Below, piece by piece: positions 5,364-25,838 of a stretch of DNA of 25,838 nucleotides. Source of the stretch: a virus (Duplodnaviria > Caudoviricetes); IMG/VR virus record IMGVR_UViG_3300037991_005720, positions 1-25,838 of that record, one strand, 5' to 3'. The number at the start of each line of letters is the position of its first letter. The first letter of the stretch is position 1. The translations under genes and the position numbers were made by a program. The notes below the pieces were generated by a model, which was given only the letters and a program-made list of their open reading frames with translations, was not told where the DNA came from and did not search any database.

Positions 5364-5451
5364 TTATGGGGGTACCTAAGGTTTTTTTTGACACGCCTGC
5401 CCTATATATACAGCGTTTGCGAATTATTTTACGTTTTAGGTATCTTTTTTA

Positions 5452-5479
5452 TTGATATACGGGCAACAAGTGCTAAGAT
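5452..5479 (+). promoter_or_regulatory. Sigma70 promoter driving the ncRNA cluster
   Basis: TTGATA (5452-5457)-16 nt-TAAGAT (5474-5479) with extended -10 TG and an upstream T-rich tract. The spacer contains the ACGGGCAACAA motif. Confidence 0.7.
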
Positions 5480-5487
5480 TCAAGTAC

Positions 5488-5536
5488 GTTAATTGAAATT
5501 AACTGCTTGGATGCGTTCAAGCCGATCTTTGAAAAC
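5488..5536 (+). promoter_or_regulatory. rrn-leader-like antitermination element (two hairpins plus boxA-like sequence)
   Basis: Hairpins GTTAAT/ATTAAC (5488-5503) and GCTTGGA/TTCAAGC (5505-5522) directly precede GATCTTTGAAAAC (5524-5536), which resembles bacterial rRNA-operon boxA. Confidence 0.6.
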
Positions 5537-5550
5537 AGCACATCGAATTG

Positions 5551-5699
5551 AGAGCTTCTATCAGCCTACTAGGTCAGATACGAAGTAGGCTCCTTGGGAA
5601 TAGTAGGCTAGGGTTTGATCACCAGAAGGTTCGACTCCTTCTCCCACGCAGAGTCAATGATCTTAGGAAGTGACACCCTAGTCGGTTGATAAAAGCTCT
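5551..5699 (+). ncRNA. Structured RNA domain 1, containing a tRNA T-arm
   Basis: Ends pair as AGAGCTT/AAGCTCT and TATCAGCC/GGTTGATA. The internal hairpin AGAAGG-TTCGACT-CCTTCT (5624-5642) has a canonical T-loop. Confidence 0.7.
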
Positions 5700-5704
5700 T
5701 TACC

Positions 5705-5852
5705 CAGTAACCAGAACAATATGCCAGTAGGCACGTAACACTGGAGACTCGCCAACGCTGCAGAACGCAACAGTGCCTCAGGTCATGCGACTAACAGGTT
5801 GGTAGGAAATAACCTAGAAAAGAAAAGTTGGTTTCGTGCCACTTGGTTACTG
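5705..5852 (+). ncRNA. Structured RNA domain 2, probable pseudoknot
   Basis: Closing stem CAGTAACCA/TGGTTACTG (9 bp). The loop of hairpin CCAGT/ACTGG contains GGCACG, which matches CGTGCC at 5835-5840. An inner stem GCCAAC/GTTGGT encloses further hairpins. Confidence 0.68.
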
Positions 5853-5858
5853 ACAATT

Positions 5859-5933
5859 TCGCCACCCAATGCCTCGAGGGACACTACCCAGAGATGGTAC
5901 CTAAATGTGAACGTAAATAGGGGTGGGTGGCGA
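5859..5933 (+). ncRNA. Structured RNA domain 3 (75-nt cloverleaf-like fold)
   Basis: A perfect 10-bp stem TCGCCACCCA/TGGGTGGCGA encloses CCTCGAGG, TACC/GGTA and CCTA/TAGG arms. Confidence 0.65.
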
Positions 5934-5944
5934 TACCTCTTTAT

Positions 5945-6032
5945 GGAGAAGAGTAGCTCGGGTGCCACTGACGAGTGGGTAACATCCTAGCTACAATGTT
6001 GGCAATTGCAGGTTCGATTCCCGCCTTCTCTT
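5945..6032 (+). ncRNA. tRNA-like RNA (non-canonical, no assignable anticodon)
   Basis: A 7-bp acceptor-like stem GGAGAAG/CTTCTCT stacks on the T-arm GCAGG-TTCGATT-CCCGC, and TAGCTC lies near the 5' end. The anticodon-like arm has a 10-nt loop and no CCA is encoded. Confidence 0.6.
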
Positions 6033-6096
6033 CACCTTTCATGGAAATGGCAAGTCATAGTAGACTGCCAAAACAAACATAAACACAAACTACATT

Positions 6097-6135
6097 AGCC
6101 TCACTGCGTTGGTAGTTGCGTAGTGAGGTTTTTTT
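6097..6135 (+). terminator. Rho-independent terminator closing the ncRNA cluster
   Basis: Stem AGCCTCACTGCG/CGTAGTGAGGTT running into a T-tract. Confidence 0.8.
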
Positions 6136-6140
6136 ATGCC

Positions 6141-6441
6141 TAGGAGCCACGAGGATCGTCCAGAGTTCTTTCCCTTAGATCAGACAGACATTTACAGCCC
6201 AATTACCTGCAGGCTCTTCTCGATCATTCTCGAGCTGTTTAAGGGAGGGGGCTTCGAATTCCGCCATAGGGGGGCTTTGCTGAGCTAACAATAAGCGAAC
6301 GCACAAATTTTTAGAGACAAAAGAAACAGACGGGCAACAATTTTGAAACCTTTTTATTAGGTTTGAAACAAGGTTTGAAAGGCTCGATCCACGAGAGGCT
6401 CCCAAACTGAAAAAAATTTCGCCAATCTGCTAACGCAGATT
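6141..6441. other. Non-coding repeat-rich region; candidate genome terminus, packaging site or origin
   Basis: G-runs (6243-6274), TTTGAAA three times (6342, 6362, 6374) including AGGTTTGAAA twice, imperfect flanking inverted repeats (6143-6158 vs 6385-6402), and hairpin AATCTGC/GCAGATT (6424-6441). Confidence 0.35.
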
Positions 6442-6483
6442 TAGAGAGTTGCCAAAAGAGAAAACAGTTATAATGTTTGTGGC

Positions 6484-6801
6484 ATGGAGCCTGAGAAGTC
6501 CATTATCAAAGAATTTTTAAACGGAGGTTGGCTCGTTCCCCTGATTGGGGCTGCTGCTATGTTTGCCAGATTACTATCAGGACAGAATGAGCTTTCTGCC
6601 AAGCAACAACTGAAAAGAATAGTTACAGCGGTTTTAGCTTCGGGGGTAGCATGGTTTGTTTTGGAGCAAACCGATGTTTCCTCTTTCACAAAAGCTCTGA
6701 CATACGGAATAATTGGAGTTGTTAGCCCAGAGGTTATAGGAGGTTTAGTGAGGTTGGGGCAAAAGTTTGAAAAAAACCCAGAAAAATTCATAAAAAAATG
6801 A
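6484..6801 (+). CDS. Putative holin
   Basis: 105 aa with about three hydrophobic segments and a basic C-terminal tail. It is the first gene of a cassette ending in an endolysin, with TATAAT at 6469-6474 upstream. Confidence 0.65.
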   Translation: MEPEKSIIKEFLNGGWLVPLIGAAAMFARLLSGQNELSAKQQLKRIVTAVLASGVAWFVLEQTDVSSFTKALTYGIIGVVSPEVIGGLVRLGQKFEKNPEKFIKK

Positions 6802-7403
6802 CACCACGACTAATTGTTTACTGTTTAGCTGCCATAACTTTGGCATTTGGAATAAAAGGCTTTTTGTTACACGATGATATCAAGAACACGTTGAAAGACA
6901 ACGCCAGACAACAGGAGGCTGCCACAATGGAGATTGGAATGTGCTTCGATTGGTACGGAGTGATCATTGTGGACTCGGTTGTGAAAACGGCAACGGGATT
7001 AATTACGCCAGAGATGATGATTGAAACTCTGGAAGAAGAAAGGGAAAACAAAAATGAGTATTTGAGGTTGTATAAACCAACAATCACCGAGGCAGAAAAA
7101 GAGAATGCAGAGTTTGTTTTCAGACAGGACAAAAAAATCAAGTTTTTGGTAGATAGACTCATAGAATTGGCAAAGAAAAACAATGTAGAGGGGATAGCAG
7201 AACTGATTCCGCCAATGTATGACCTGACAGACCCAACCATAGAGGCGATAAACGAGTTGATTGACGAAAAAATGTACTACAATGAAAGAAATGGAGAAAA
7301 GCTAAACAAAAAAGTCGACTCATTTTCAGAGTTTTTAGGGCTTCTTTTAGTTTTAAGTATCGTTTTGTGCGTATGCGTTTCTTTTACAAGAGTCTGCCCC
7401 TAG
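6798..7403 (+). CDS. Membrane protein: TM - chemoreceptor-type four-helix-bundle sensor domain (4HB_MCP-like) - TM, no cytoplasmic domain
   Basis: Hydrophobic helices at residues ~5-24 and ~179-197. YGVIIVD, Y..TITEAE and MYDLTDPTIEAINELID resemble conserved segments of MCP four-helix-bundle ligand-binding domains. ATGA overlap with the holin stop. Confidence 0.62.
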   Translation: MTPRLIVYCLAAITLAFGIKGFLLHDDIKNTLKDNARQQEAATMEIGMCFDWYGVIIVDSVVKTATGLITPEMMIETLEEERENKNEYLRLYKPTITEAEKENAEFVFRQDKKIKFLVDRLIELAKKNNVEGIAELIPPMYDLTDPTIEAINELIDEKMYYNERNGEKLNKKVDSFSEFLGLLLVLSIVLCVCVSFTRVCP

Positions 7404-7436
7404 TTGATTTAGGAAAAAAAGGAGCGATCTTTAGAA

Positions 7437-8078
7437 ATGAAGTTTGAAGGTAGAGACAAGATAGTAAAAGCGATTCAACGCAAGCTAGGAATAGTTGCAG
7501 ACGGGGTCGATGGACCTATTACTTGGAGAACAATACTTTCAGCGGTCACGGAAGCGAAGCCAACACTAAAGGATGCAGAGTTTTCGGGGGTAGCAAAACG
7601 CATGGTCGGATACGCAAGGGATGAAATAGGAGTTTCGGAAATAGATGGTAGCAATTGTGGACCCAGAGTCAACGAGTACAAAGCTGCGACTTGGCTGGAT
7701 GCAGAAAAACCTTGGCCGTGGTGCGCTGCTTTCATTTGCTGGCTAATACAAGAAGCAATCAAAGAAGAAAAGGTGACTTTCAAAAGACCTAGAACGGCTG
7801 GCGCATGGGATTTCGAAAACTGGGCAAGAAAAGAGCAAGAAAAAGGAGTCGGAATTGAGTTAATCAAGCCAATCGCAAACGAAGAAAAAATTAAGGCTGG
7901 GGATATAGTTGTTTTCAGATTTTCACACATAGGGCTAGCTGTTGGAGAGCCAAATCAAAGTGGCTATGTTGCAACCATAGAAGGAAACACAAATGGTGCT
8001 GGTAGCAGAGAAGGTGGATCTGTTTTGGAAAAAAGCAGACACATGAACAGCATCAGAAGCGTGATTAGAATATTGTAG
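7437..8078 (+). CDS. Endolysin: N-terminal peptidoglycan-binding motif plus CHAP domain
   Basis: IQRKLGIVADGVDGPITW (PG-binding), then PWCAAF, GDIVVF..SHIGL and TIEGNT (CHAP catalytic Cys/His). Confidence 0.88.
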   Translation: MKFEGRDKIVKAIQRKLGIVADGVDGPITWRTILSAVTEAKPTLKDAEFSGVAKRMVGYARDEIGVSEIDGSNCGPRVNEYKAATWLDAEKPWPWCAAFICWLIQEAIKEEKVTFKRPRTAGAWDFENWARKEQEKGVGIELIKPIANEEKIKAGDIVVFRFSHIGLAVGEPNQSGYVATIEGNTNGAGSREGGSVLEKSRHMNSIRSVIRIL

Positions 8079-8080
8079 AG

Positions 8081-8410
8081 ATGTACGAATACAATGCAAA
8101 GTGCTTGAGAGTGATAGACGGAGACACTATCGAAGCCAGAATAGACCTCGGGTTCTACGTGTGGGTAGAAAGAACACTGCGCCTCAGAGGAGTGAACACA
8201 CCAGAGATCAGAACAAAAGATTTAAGCGAAAAGCGCAGGGGGCAAGCTGCAAAAAAAAGAGTAGAGGATCTTATGGCAGAGAATAATTACGAGTTCAAAC
8301 TCATAAGCCACAACGTAGGGAAATACGGAAGAGTAGTCAGCGATATTATACTTCCGCAAGGTGATCTGGGAGATATTTTGATAATGGAGGACATGGGGGA
8401 GGCATATTAG
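8081..8410 (+). CDS. Thermonuclease (SNase-like) family protein
   Basis: VIDGDTI...DLGF, RLRGVNTPE and GKYGR motifs. Confidence 0.9.
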   Translation: MYEYNAKCLRVIDGDTIEARIDLGFYVWVERTLRLRGVNTPEIRTKDLSEKRRGQAAKKRVEDLMAENNYEFKLISHNVGKYGRVVSDIILPQGDLGDILIMEDMGEAY

Positions 8411-20459: not shown

Positions 20460-23400
20460 ATGCCAAAAGGACTTGGAAGCAATTTCGGCAAGTTTGGTAA
20501 AAATTATGATAGGAAAAACCCTATCAGTTTGGATATCAAATTTGATCAAGATCAGGATGCAAACTGGGATGAAATAGGGCTAGTACATACTAGACCATGT
20601 TCAGCTATACAGCGAAACTCAAATGGCGCATTAGTTTTCGCTCCTGAGAACCGTATTGCAAATTCTGAGAACTTAGCAGCATTACTAACAAACAACACAA
20701 GTGCAGGTGGAGGAGCTACTGTCGAAGCAGCCTCAAGTATAACAGACCCATTTGGAGGTAATGCAGCTTACAAAATAAAAGAAGCTGCTTCATCAGCAGG
20801 TAATATATATCACACTAAGTTCCATACTGTTACAGGTTTAAAAACTGGCGAGCAATATATATGCTCAATCTACGCAAGAGCAGGGGAAACTCATGGATTG
20901 TTTCTTGAGTCACACGGAGCTTCTACCAGTAAAGATCACGCTCGTTTCGGTCTTGGTGGAGACAAAGGAAGACAAGGTGGAGGGGCAGGTGCTGCTACAA
21001 AATCTGGATACATAGAAAGAATAAATAACGATTGGTATAGACTCAGCATAGTAACAGTAGCTGCTTCAAATCAAATCCATTTCGGCGTAAGAGTACTAAG
21101 GCAGTACAGTGTTGTAGGAAACGAGTCAACTGGAGATGGTAATACAGGTCTATACCTCTTCGGGATGCAAATAGAACGCTGCATCAAAAGAACAGGCGTA
21201 AACAGTCAGAACACGCATGTGTTTATGCCAGATTACCATAAGCCATCTGCATACAAAAAAACAACTGGCACTGCATATTATGGACCAAGGTTTGATTATG
21301 ACATAGACGGAAATGCGAAAGGCTTGCTGATAGAGCAAGAATCAACGAACCTGATAACCCATTCTCAGAAAGTTATAGCTGGAACAGGCTGGTCAGCAAC
21401 TAATATCACGACCGATGCAAACGCTACTGAAGCACCAACAGGAGAGAAGGAAGCATCAAGAATAAAGACCACAACTGCTAGTGGTCTGCATATAATTGGA
21501 CCTGCAAGCACTCCAAGTATACCTGCATCAACGAATTTCACGTATTCAGTTTATCTTAAAAAAGATTCAACTGATTACGCAAAGATATATCACAATGATT
21601 CTAATTCAATGATGCTTCAAGTTGACTTGAATAAAGGAAAAATTACTAATACTGGCTCAATAAACGGAAGATCATTTATCGAAGATGCAGGAAATGGATG
21701 GTACAGAGTTGGTTACAACCACAAAACACCTTCAACTCATGCTGTAGGAAGCATGTTTATCTACCCCACTGATGTAAACGGAACAATAAATCACTCAGGA
21801 AATGAATGGAGTATATTTGCTTGGGGAGTTCAAGTTGAGCTAGGGGGTGCTGCAAGTTCTTTGATTCCTACATTTGGAGCGACTGCAACCAGATCAACAG
21901 ATGTGGTGAAAATTACTGGAGACAACTTCACAAAATTTTTCAATCCAAATCAAGGGACAGTGGTTTTCGAAGGTTCTGTAATAAAGGGACTGAAAGAGGA
22001 CAGTGTTTACAATAGGCTTTTTGAATTTCACAACGGATCAAATAACAATGATCGTATACTTGCCTACCTAAATAACAGCCAAGTAGCTGTAGGCTCATTG
22101 CGTTCTGGAGGCACAACCCAAATATCTGCAGGTGGCACAAACAGCAAAACGACATCTGGCGATGTATTTAACTTTTCTTTGACCTATGGAGAGAATTACT
22201 TTAAGCCGAATGCCGACCAAAGAAACAGCACTACTACAACTTCGCTAACTTTACCTACAGGAATAAACACTTTAAACATTGGCACCGATCGCCCGAATGC
22301 TAAAGGGCTAAATGGTTGGGTGAAAAAATTTACCTACCACAAAAGAAAAAGATCAGAGGATTGGAACCAACAAAGCACTAAAAACCTAAACGTACTTTCA
22401 GAAGTTAGAGGAGGTTTGTCTGCGCTAAGTCTACGAAATGTTTCAGGAAAGCCTAAGCAAAAAGTAGTTAGAGTAAGAAGAGGATTAGATGACATAGAGC
22501 AAGATTTTACAGCACTACAAGTAGCAGACGGATCACTCGCAAGTTTCTGTAAATTTAACACAGACACCTTGCCCCTAAACAAAGCTCTTCCAGTTGCAGA
22601 ACTAGTGACAAACGGGGATTTTAGTTCAGCTACAGGTTGGACACTCAGTGGAGCTACCATAAGCGGAGGTAAGCTAAATTTTGCTAACTCTGTTTTTGAT
22701 ACAGCAAAACCTGCTGGACTGAAAGGCGATAACGTATCGAACTACAGAATGTCTTTTACAGTTGATTCAATATCAGGTGCACTTTTGTTCATATGGCCTG
22801 GAGGGTTCTTCAATCCTACAATAACATCGGCAGGAAGTTATGTTTATGAATCCACATCACCAAGTAGCAATGAATTTATCATGGCTAACAATGGTGGCCC
22901 CATCGTTATTGATGATTTTTCTGTGAAGAAAATAACTGCTGATGGAAATGAAGTTGCAGGAATGGGAGTTTCAACAAGAAAAATAAGCAGTGCCACTTTA
23001 GACCCTGCTATGATAGTGAGGCGAGCAGATGACAACATTGAAGCTATTGTTAATTACGATTCAAACGGAGTAATATCTGCCAACAGCAGCATAGCAAACC
23101 CATCATACAACTTGGTTCCAAACAGCAAAGACATGGAAGATTGGGACAATGATGAAACACCACAAATCGGTCAAAACTACAGAATAGAAGATGGAGTTAC
23201 GGACGCATTTGGCACCAATACCGCCCAAAGACTTCACACAACAAGTTACAGCAACTCTATACCAAGACAGCGTGTTGCTATCGAAAAAGGCGAGGATTAC
23301 ACTCTAACTGCATACGTGGAAAAGAAAACTATATCAGGTGGCTATGCACCTACCATATTGTTATACCCGTATGACATAAACAAAGTTCAACCTGTTTATA

Positions 23401-25838
23401 ACACTTACGGTCATAATTCATCTGTAGCAGGATTCTTTATCGATGTAACAAACGGGCGAGTCGGATATATAGGAAACGGCAACTCAGCCCAGTGGCTAAA
23501 GTTAGCAATCAAAGAAGAAAACGGATTCTACAAAGTTACAGCCCATTTCAAAGACCCTTTATTCCCATCCACAAAAGATGGATACATGGTTTTGACACCA
23601 AAGCTAGACTCTGCTGCAAACTTGTACACCACAGGCACTTTCGGAGGAGCTCCTGCTGGAGCTAGAGATCTAGCTTGGCATAGTTTCCAAGTCGAAAAAA
23701 CACAATACGGAACACTCAGTGAAGAGAAGTTAACAAACGGAGATTTCTCAAGCGATACCATTTGGTTTAAGAGTTCAGCTTTCTCTATCGCAAATGGAAA
23801 AGCAAATTTCTCTGGGTCATCAACTGGAAAAATATCTCAGAAATGCCACTTCAACAGAGCAAGAACATATCAGTTAACTTTCACTGTTTCTGATTCATCT
23901 TCCACAGCCAGAATTTTCATTGGCAATCACGATGGAAACAAAAGCTATAATCCTTTGCAATCTGGTTACAGCAATTTCGCAAATGGAACTCACACAGTGG
24001 ACCTCAAGGTGACAAATAGTAATGAAGGCTTGCTAGATAGCTCCAACGCAAACGGAGTTCCAAGAGACTTAGCAATATGGGGGCATTCAGACAATGGCAG
24101 TTTCAAGTTAGACAATGTAAGCCTAAAAGAGAAGCAGGTAGAAATAGTTACAAACGGATCATTTGCTGCCGACAGCGACTGGACTAAAGCTGCCGACTGG
24201 ACAATCAGCGGAGGCAAAGCAAACCTAAATACCACAACAACAGGAAGAACACTAGCTCAAAACTCTATCGGACAAGGTGGAGGAAGTTATGAAGTAACAT
24301 ATACAGTTTCCAACTACGTAGCAGGGGATGTAAGAATAAAGCTAGGAAATGCTTATGGCGAAACAAGAAACGCCAACGGAACATACACTGACATTATCAC
24401 GCCAATAATTCCAATGGAAGGCACAGAGTCAGGAGTAACTTGGACAGACAGAGCAGCAGAAGTTGCTAATCTTCATTTCGAAAACGTAACAGCCACAACT
24501 AATCTCTCAATCGATAATGTTTCGATGAAAGAGAGAATAGAAATACCTCGAGCTTATCAAGAAACACCCACCACTCCGAACGGAAACGTACCATTCGGAG
24601 GTGTAACTGACGCACCAAACAGTGATGCAGGGGACACAGACGCAAGCACTTTGGGTGGCTTCTTGAATAAAGAAAATTTATTCTTAAACAGTGAAGATTT
24701 CACAGATGGAATATGGCTCAAAAGCAATGTTTTAGTCGAAAAAAGCGATATAACTGACCCATTTGATGGTTACAACAGTTACCTCATAACATCAGATGCC
24801 AACGGAATCGGAGCTATACTACAAGACAACCTAACAACAACTGATGATAAATACGTGGTTTCTGTTTACCTTAAAAAAGGAACAATGGATACCGTGCAAT
24901 TCGGGCTAGTTGACCAAGGAAGCGCATCAGTTAGGGCAGAAGTAAATCTTACTGATGGAACTATATCTTCTTCAGCAGGTTCTCCAACAGAAATGACCAT
25001 AACACCAGTGGGTTCTGATGGTTGGTTTAGATGTAGTTTAGCTTATACTTTACCAGCAGGAGGCTCTGATACTTTCCAGTTGAGATCAGGTTCAACTAGC
25101 AAGAGTGGCGAAAATTTTTATGCTTTCGGTTACCAAGTAAACACTGGTTCATTGAAGGATTATCAAAAAACTACTGGAACAGCTTTGACTGGAAATATCC
25201 ACGTAGTTCAATGGATAGGACAAGGTGGAATCAGAGGATTCGTGCAAGACACAGCAAGCCTACAACCAAGATTAGCTGCTGGTGGGGAGCTTGTGAAAGA
25301 CAGCAATGGAATACAAAGTGTTGATTTCAATTCACAGAGAATGACATCTGAGAATGATTTGAAGGACTACACAAGGCTGGATACGTTCATGCACTTGGAA
25401 ACAAGTGATGAACAGTGGATCTTGTTTTCTGATTCTTCATCAACTGACAAATATGGATTTACAGTTCAGAATGGCGACACTTCTAACAACAGCACTGCTG
25501 ACGCTCAAAATTACGGTTACAATCATTTGTTTTTTGTAGACAATAAACAGACTACAGGAAACACAAGAAACGAAATGCATGACAGACTAAGCGGTAAACC
25601 TCATGTGCTTTCCGTGAAAAATGCAGCAACAATAGGTTGGGGTGATGTTTCAATCGGAAAATGGGACGTTAGTTCAGATTGGGACTTTAAGGGCAAAATA
25701 TCTGAGATTGTAATGTATGGCAATGTTGTACCTGACGATTCAAGGTCAGAGGTAACATACGAAATGCTACAGGCAAAAGGTATAAACTTAGTAGACTCAG
25801 ATTTCTCAACAAGTGATGGATTCACACTAGCAGCAAGT
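20460..25838 (+). CDS. Giant multi-domain fibre/spike (adhesin-like) protein, partial, at least 1793 aa (absent from the ORF track)
   Basis: ATG at 20460 (MPKGLGSNFGK...). Spot checks stay in one frame to the window end (...LVDSDFSTSDGFTLAAS), and the track lists no stop-terminated + ORF here. Repeated NL..NSE/GWYR modules, PRFDY...GLLIE, and repeated ELVTNGDFS modules. Confidence 0.85.
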   Translation, partial: MPKGLGSNFGKFGKNYDRKNPISLDIKFDQDQDANWDEIGLVHTRPCSAIQRNSNGALVFAPENRIANSENLAALLTNNTSAGGGATVEAASSITDPFGGNAAYKIKEAASSAGNIYHTKFHTVTGLKTGEQYICSIYARAGETHGLFLESHGASTSKDHARFGLGGDKGRQGGGAGAATKSGYIERINNDWYRLSIVTVAASNQIHFGVRVLRQYSVVGNESTGDGNTGLYLFGMQIERCIKRTGVNSQNTHVFMPDYHKPSAYKKTTGTAYYGPRFDYDIDGNAKGLLIEQESTNLITHSQKVIAGTGWSATNITTDANATEAPTGEKEASRIKTTTASGLHIIGPASTPSIPASTNFTYSVYLKKDSTDYAKIYHNDSNSMMLQVDLNKGKITNTGSINGRSFIEDAGNGWYRVGYNHKTPSTHAVGSMFIYPTDVNGTINHSGNEWSIFAWGVQVELGGAASSLIPTFGATATRSTDVVKITGDNFTKFFNPNQGTVVFEGSVIKGLKEDSVYNRLFEFHNGSNNNDRILAYLNNSQVAVGSLRSGGTTQISAGGTNSKTTSGDVFNFSLTYGENYFKPNADQRNSTTTTSLTLPTGINTLNIGTDRPNAKGLNGWVKKFTYHKRKRSEDWNQQSTKNLNVLSEVRGGLSALSLRNVSGKPKQKVVRVRRGLDDIEQDFTALQVADGSLASFCKFNTDTLPLNKALPVAELVTNGDFSSATGWTLSGATISGGKLNFANSVFDTAKPAGLKGDNVSNYRMSFTVDSISGALLFIWPGGFFNPTITSAGSYVYESTSPSSNEFIMANNGGPIVIDDFSVKKITADGNEVAGMGVSTRKISSATLDPAMIVRRADDNIEAIVNYDSNGVISANSSIANPSYNLVPNSKDMEDWDNDETPQIGQNYRIEDGVTDAFGTNTAQRLHTTSYSNSIPRQRVAIEKGEDYTLTAYVEKKTISGGYAPTILLYPYDINKVQPVYNTYGHNSSVAGFFIDVTNGRVGYIGNGNSAQWLKLAIKEENGFYKVTAHFKDPLFPSTKDGYMVLTPKLDSAANLYTTGTFGGAPAGARDLAWHSFQVEKTQYGTLSEEKLTNGDFSSDTIWFKSSAFSIANGKANFSGSSTGKISQKCHFNRARTYQLTFTVSDSSSTARIFIGNHDGNKSYNPLQSGYSNFANGTHTVDLKVTNSNEGLLDSSNANGVPRDLAIWGHSDNGSFKLDNVSLKEKQVEIVTNGSFAADSDWTKAADWTISGGKANLNTTTTGRTLAQNSIGQGGGSYEVTYTVSNYVAGDVRIKLGNAYGETRNANGTYTDIITPIIPMEGTESGVTWTDRAAEVANLHFENVTATTNLSIDNVSMKERIEIPRAYQETPTTPNGNVPFGGVTDAPNSDAGDTDASTLGGFLNKENLFLNSEDFTDGIWLKSNVLVEKSDITDPFDGYNSYLITSDANGIGAILQDNLTTTDDKYVVSVYLKKGTMDTVQFGLVDQGSASVRAEVNLTDGTISSSAGSPTEMTITPVGSDGWFRCSLAYTLPAGGSDTFQLRSGSTSKSGENFYAFGYQVNTGSLKDYQKTTGTALTGNIHVVQWIGQGGIRGFVQDTASLQPRLAAGGELVKDSNGIQSVDFNSQRMTSENDLKDYTRLDTFMHLETSDEQWILFSDSSSTDKYGFTVQNGDTSNNSTADAQNYGYNHLFFVDNKQTTGNTRNEMHDRLSGKPHVLSVKNAATIGWGDVSIGKWDVSSDWDFKGKISEIVMYGNVVPDDSRSEVTYEMLQAKGINLVDSDFSTSDGFTLAAS

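Follow-up and report, generated by a model that had tools for sequence, protein, structure and literature searches.

Proteins that regulate holins are well described. In phage T4 the antiholin RI is a partner of the holin T and sets lysis time from the periplasm; T has one membrane helix and a periplasmic domain to which RI binds, and the signal is superinfecting DNA, according to the sections cited here (PMC11413866, PMC9636201). Regulators encoded separately from the holin are also reported, in the cited parts of each source, in the holin loci of ICP1 (TeaA and ArrA; PMC7182436), of phiKZ (gp142 and gp143, the latter cytoplasmic) and of P1 (LydA and LydB; PMC12894885 for both). In N4, the pinholin gp63 is paired with gp62, which the cited section describes as a non-essential protein with two membrane helices and both ends inside (PMC12642591). 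Across the open literature covered, lysis inhibition after superinfection is the known way in which lysis time is set from outside. Bacterial sensors of the 4HB type (4HB_MCP_1 or TarH; PcaY_PP 6s18, MCP2201 9kup, Vc1313 8bsa, NarQ, Tar, Tsr) have a helical bundle between two membrane helices, TM1 and TM2, and in Tar ligand binding is described in the cited section as sliding helix 4 into TM2 (PMC10735184). The Corynebacterium protein GlnX is a 4HB membrane protein that has no catalytic output and signals to a separate protein, in the cited account (PMC9769921). We found no description in the open literature of a holin partner derived from a chemoreceptor. Here we compare with these systems a phage locus in which a predicted holin gene overlaps a gene for such a partner.

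The locus lies in the window, a stretch of 25,838 nucleotides that covers positions 1 to 25,838 of IMG/VR record IMGVR_UViG_3300037991_005720. This record is linear, is 43% complete and carries replication and tail genes, and the public runs that match it best are marine metagenomes; its source is an uncultured marine phage. A single stop-free frame of about 1790 codons extends from 20460 to 25838, the end of the record, and likely encodes a large tail or receptor-binding protein. Three plus-strand open reading frames were found exactly where the original prediction had placed them. The first (6484..6801) encodes H, a 105-aa membrane protein with three helices and a predicted holin of the lambda S / LydA type (superfamily III). 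The second (6798..7403) encodes a 201-aa protein, here called the partner, with a predicted four-helix bundle between TM1 and TM2 and an origin in the N-terminal half of a chemoreceptor. The third (7437..8078) encodes a 213-aa CHAP-domain endolysin with its own AGGAG at 7420-7424. A staphylococcal-nuclease-family gene (Pfam SNase; 8081-8410) starts 2 bases past the endolysin stop, in a slot that another small gene occupies in the marine relatives.

H and the partner share a plus-strand ATGA stop/start overlap (6798..6801), also as predicted, which would couple their translation. The junction in relatives is an ATGA or TAATG overlap, and in four loci with partners of 77 aa it is an overlap of 11 bases. 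In one locus (L190, 5673-6047) H extends to 124 aa and its overlap with a full-length partner shifts frame, either a natural variant or an assembly error. In the window a seven-A run precedes the stop of H in the correct frame relation for a -1 frameshift, which would fuse H and the partner into a five-helix protein. However, many relatives have an interrupted A-run and the T4-like lineage has none, and there is no protein of about 305 aa among the 32 representative matches described below. The junction is thus not a conserved slippery site, and we regard a fused product as very improbable.

Upstream of H, a possible -10 element (TATAAT, 6469..6474, plus strand) lies 9 bases 5' of the start codon and would give a short-leader transcript; it is a weak candidate, absent from the promoter-scan output and at a position that is not conserved across relatives. 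No Shine-Dalgarno-like motif was found at -18 to -4 in 123 distinct H upstream regions, which may be a hint at the host group. About 1.1 kb of the window before H (5364-6483) has no convincing gene. Two stretches of this region, near 5627 and 6010, resemble tRNA T-arms by eye, a terminator-like hairpin occupies 6097-6130, and the segment 6150-6460 is skewed; ARAGORN found no tRNA and Rfam gave no match upstream of H. A terminator-like hairpin lies immediately 5' of H in many marine loci.

Independent marine assemblies span the region with no gaps or insertions in the partner gene, and 14 of 15 changed codons in contigs from other runs are synonymous. Contigs from RNA libraries carry pieces of all three genes, which cannot show transcription. 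These gap-free assemblies, together with 189 relatives of the partner and a dN/dS of 0.05, indicate that the partner locus is not a product of chance.

Hydropathy peaks at residues 5-23 (TM1, 6810..6866) and 179-197 (TM2, 7332..7388), both on the plus strand and both retained in all short forms of the protein, enclose 155 residues (24-178, 6867..7331, plus strand) that the structure model places in a predicted periplasmic domain. The C-terminus lies four residues past TM2, and no HAMP or signalling domain is present. The original prediction had described precisely such a protein, with TM1, a domain of about 155 aa, TM2, an end close to TM2 and no signalling domain, and the sequence motifs that it quoted are present in the 201-aa protein. 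The structure model (pLDDT 90) has a four-helix bundle between two membrane helices, the predicted layout of a 4HB sensor module. When the model was compared with 48,161 solved chains, the top five matches were all receptor sensor domains (Z 14.1-15.4, rmsd 2.2-2.7): PcaY_PP was best (Z 15.4, rmsd 2.2, 137 residues aligned), followed by MCP2201 (Z 14.9), Vc1313 (14.6), Adeh_2942 (14.2) and HK9 (14.1). Designed helical bundles scored just under these receptors in the same comparison (Z 13.0-13.4). A Foldseek search, which had been proposed as a check, listed the same receptors but gave no match at E<=0.001.

The long helices of the partner, and its place inside a lysis cassette in the window, would also suit a spanin-like disruptor of the outer membrane. 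The predicted fold is the four-helix bundle that had been anticipated rather than a spanin coiled coil: it has two membrane helices and a closed bundle, not one anchor and an extended coil. Forms of the partner of 49-57 aa are too short to span the periplasm, relatives have a separate overlapping gene pair upstream of which one product is lipoprotein-like (read by eye), and the partner itself has no lipobox as judged by eye. A spanin role is therefore highly improbable.

The chemoreceptor origin that had been proposed for the partner was upheld by phmmer, profile comparison and fold. A phmmer search of 1.84 billion representative proteins returned 32 matches, mostly proteins of 195-232 aa with the same architecture, and also matched a complete MCP (P0148, E 7.6e-5) and an MCP fragment. 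The family profile aligned with this full MCP with a probability of 98.5 over 157 columns (hhalign), and the partner matched Atlas clusters that carry 4HB_MCP_1 at 0.97. The proposed likeness to 4HB_MCP_1 is real as judged by this MCP homology, but the single protein falls under the Pfam gathering score (E 0.0018, 18.3 bits against a cut-off of 27), and 4 of 69 close members match 4HB_MCP_1 at E<=0.01. Full-length partners of different lineages are 20-31% identical. D51, K63, Y92, E100, Y141 and P146 are the commonest residues at their positions in 21-26 of 27 phage-type rows, and all six are common to both MCP rows too. The carboxylate-binding arginines of MCP2201 are without a conserved counterpart among the 27 partner positions compared, so no ligand class can be named for the partner.

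Other searches delimit the family. With the partner as query, a sequence search of solved structures returned designed helical proteins only, and a viral scan with one group of relatives (P0124) gave no matches. No relative of 353-2000 aa, which would be a longer or fused sensor form, was found among 1797 candidates, which is weak evidence. No sensor relative was found among 31 pattern matches in bacterial genomes. Cultured phages gave no match to the partner or H, and CHAP matches there were distant only. A match to a repeat protein (P0135) was spurious and was dropped. Together, homology and the modelled fold identify the partner as the front (sensor) half of a chemoreceptor, captured by a phage and lacking an output domain.

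H is probably a holin, with matches to superfamily III that are weak but consistent. It falls under the cut-off for Pfam Phage_holin_3_3 (E 0.0048), 11 of 12 members of its family match this model at E<=0.1 (best 1e-5), and distant members match the PHROGs holin families 6384 and 785 (E 3.5e-6 and 2.6e-5). The H profile aligned with lambda S at 34% over 50 columns (probability 76), and its look-alikes in the Atlas are holin clusters. In build, with 105 aa, three membrane helices and a charged C-terminal tail, H fits holin superfamily III (about 100-110 aa), and its hydropathy peaks are modest (1.4-1.6). The H family comprises at least 1409 proteins, and identity between distant lineages is 46-63%; holins are usually far less conserved. 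In bacterial genomes there was one real match to H, on a 1.8-kb phage-like contig in a metagenome bin (L203), and two weak ones.

Both genes are present in 196 of 202 loci among the matches listed, redundant loci included. Three loci have a sensor only, each with less than 70 bases of upstream DNA, and every sensor locus with upstream DNA among the matches listed carries H; a further locus (L334) likewise has both genes. The pair was found in unrelated phages: marine ones of about 100 kb, T4-like ones where a head-tail adaptor gene lies alongside, and others. Among the matches listed, the closest relatives of the window are L001 (sensor 81%, H 90% identical) and L002 (sensor 79%, H 91%). In their SbcC-like proteins, the window and L001 share only 31% identity. 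This distance, and the lack of an endolysin next to the pair in L001 and L002, indicate that the pair moves as a module. Identities of H and the partner correlate across 22 representatives (rank correlation 0.88), which follows from shared descent and is not evidence of contact. In 73 of the first 80 loci a protein of 223-230 aa with a signal peptide, the look of an outer-membrane barrel and a weak MipA match (as at L003, 4942-5613) is encoded near H, usually just upstream; it is not at the window site.

We surveyed the gene that follows H in 174 distinct H loci, drawn from the 327 of 330 loci with H; the scans behind this census took the best 80 of 203, 514 or 361 matches, and its counts are not population frequencies. 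Among the matches listed, the next gene was a full-length partner in 113 loci, a form of 77-81 aa in 13 and a bare hairpin of 49-57 aa in 15; 20 loci had no partner gene, 4 had a remnant or an unrelated gene, and in 9 the gene was truncated where the contig ended. When the count was restricted to loci found with holin queries (128 distinct), the same classes numbered 69, 13, 15, 20, 4 and 7 among the matches listed, so full-length forms are in the majority there too. All short forms keep both membrane helices. The 81-aa relatives lack the bundle core (about residues 37-156), and two loci (L256, L286) have clean deletions of 120 and 135 residues. In two others (L296, L297) the overlapping start after H is retained but its reading frame ends within 6 codons, and this may be what is left of the partner. 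A CHASE2 and adenylate/guanylate cyclase protein, another captured sensor among these phages, is encoded 1.5 kb upstream of one partner-less H (L308, 746-2803).

For 23 of the 24 short forms compared, the best match to the C-terminal half was the full-length partner from the same lineage. Full-length partners occur on both sides of the deepest split in the H tree (48 rows), on which the partner label changes 11 times, at least 6 of these forced by well-supported branches; four loci were scored as having no partner in the tree and a mid-length one in the census. Deletion of the bundle thus arose separately in at least three lineages with the helices spared, and the whole partner is dispensable in several. 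The simplest history is that the front half of an MCP was captured once, downstream of H, that the bundle was then deleted several times, and that the gene was sometimes lost altogether. The sensor domain named in the original prediction is therefore real, but it is dispensable, and many relatives keep only the two membrane helices.

This pattern bears on an alternative that had been raised from the start, in which the partner acts independently of the holin and jams host chemoreceptors or sensor kinases through mixed dimers or as a ligand sink. Its true chemoreceptor ancestry and missing output domain would fit such a role. However, among the matches listed the partner never occurs without H where upstream DNA is present, and hairpin-only forms, which have no bundle, persist in the same slot coupled to the holin. 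We consider this alternative improbable.

A stronger alternative is that the hairpin regulates the holin and the bundle does no sensing, being merely a dimerisation or spacing module or a folded leftover. The independent losses of the bundle with the helices spared are as this alternative would have it, as are the lack of a conserved arginine pocket and a pair of loci with partners of 51 aa (L219) and 202 aa (L223) in T4-like neighbourhoods that otherwise match. Against it, dN/dS is as low in the bundle core (0.049) as in the helices (0.049 and 0.080; H 0.024), these values being from 156 of 4656 pairs that were picked to avoid saturation and are not independent. In addition, the polar residues common to MCPs persist at 20-30% overall identity, and full-length forms are the majority of the holin-query loci (69 of 128 among the matches listed). 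The bundle is under purifying selection where it is kept, and we judge a purely structural bundle to be rather unlikely.

The link between the pair and lysis was assessed from its neighbours. The window endolysin matches Pfam CHAP at the cut-off (E 1.3e-5) and PHROGs endolysin 21825 (E 2.8e-13), and has no obvious signal or anchor sequence. Among the matches listed, a wall hydrolase adjoins H in 93 of 113 full-length, 7 of 13 mid-length, 0 of 15 hairpin and 12 of 20 partner-less loci. Conversely, again among the matches listed, all 15 hairpin loci and 15 of the 113 full-length loci have enough flank but no adjacent wall hydrolase of the three types searched; these full-length loci include L001 and L002. 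All 93 full-length loci with the order H, partner, endolysin come from two of the six H clusters with full-length partners, and an endolysin after the partner occurs in one marine lineage only, among the matches listed. Conservation of the linkage to lysis genes, as originally envisaged, therefore holds for the overlap with the holin-like gene, and the endolysin link is lineage-specific. The conserved unit is the pair of holin and partner, not a three-gene cassette. A third type of hydrolase was suspected at L318 and L325, but Pfam gave no match and it was excluded from the counts.

These neighbourhoods leave room for the idea that H and the partner form a mobile membrane module with no part in lysis, acting for example in superinfection exclusion or control of membrane potential; holin folds can be co-opted. 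The pair lies away from wall hydrolases in T4-like and other lineages, beside head-tail adaptor genes or within tRNA-like regions; H is 90% identical between the window and L001 against 31% for the SbcC-like proteins; and other small holin-like genes occur nearby. One such second gene, identified by eye and without Pfam verification, lies within 78 of the 174 H loci among the matches listed. Against this idea, H adjoins a wall hydrolase in separate lineages and in different arrangements: CHAP downstream in the marine group, L203 and L332, CHAP upstream in L310 and L311, and Amidase_2 upstream in 10 loci of the L248 group. The 12 partner-less H loci with a hydrolase, among the matches listed, adjoin CHAP or Amidase_2, two unrelated enzymes. 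The window endolysin also lacks a visible export signal, and T4-like phages scatter their lysis genes. On balance, we hold a non-lysis module to be unlikely.

The reading that we favour, tentatively, is that the partner is a non-essential regulator of the holin that works through its membrane hairpin, with the bundle as an optional input. The hairpin is the part that survives deletion of the bundle, so the partner probably does its main work in the membrane, with H as the likely target. The gene overlap would couple translation and set the ratio of H to partner, the partner would alter when holes form by packing its two membrane helices against the holin, and the periplasmic bundle might bind something in the cell envelope and so change the grip of the helices on the holin. 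With no HAMP domain, a movement of the helices would be readable only by a membrane neighbour. Within this scheme, hole formation by H, contact between H and the partner, the direction of the effect and ligand binding by the bundle are all inferred. A more specific form, in which a periplasmic small molecule moves helix 4 and TM2 and thereby advances or delays lysis as a chemical switch, is possible but doubtful. If it were true, aquatic phages would time their exit by water chemistry or host crowding, and natural sensor-less alleles would represent the unregulated state.

A holin partner built from a chemoreceptor, if that is what it is, would let a chemical cue act directly on bursting in aquatic phages that are widespread, and would be relevant to how viral lysis tracks nutrients. 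The family contains natural controls, since near-identical holins are accompanied by partners that are full-length, 81 aa or 51 aa long, or by none. Even if no ligand is involved, phages have clearly captured half of a bacterial receptor here and trimmed it. Holin regulators are already known, and there is a real chance that this one works by a ligand-gated mechanism of a kind not yet described.

Set against the known systems, H resembles the lambda S and LydA holins in its length of about 105 aa and its three helices, and differs in having no visible dual-start motif and in being unusually conserved. In contrast to T4 T, H has three helices and a short outer loop only, so any contact with the partner would be within the membrane. 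As in ICP1, phiKZ and P1, the putative regulator is separately encoded in the holin locus; unlike the partner, neither ArrA, gp143 nor LydB is described as chemoreceptor-derived in the sections cited (PMC7182436, PMC12894885). N4 gp62 likewise has two membrane helices, a likeness by description, and no chemoreceptor domain is reported for it in the cited section, unlike the partner (PMC12642591). GlnX differs in being bacterial and in having four membrane helices and two bundles, with a binding protein and a kinase as its partners in the cited account (PMC9769921). The 4HB sensors have the same TM1-bundle-TM2 layout and are related to the partner in sequence and predicted fold; in contrast to these receptors, the partner has no HAMP, signalling or kinase domain, is encoded by a phage and coupled to a holin-like gene, and carries a bundle that can be removed.
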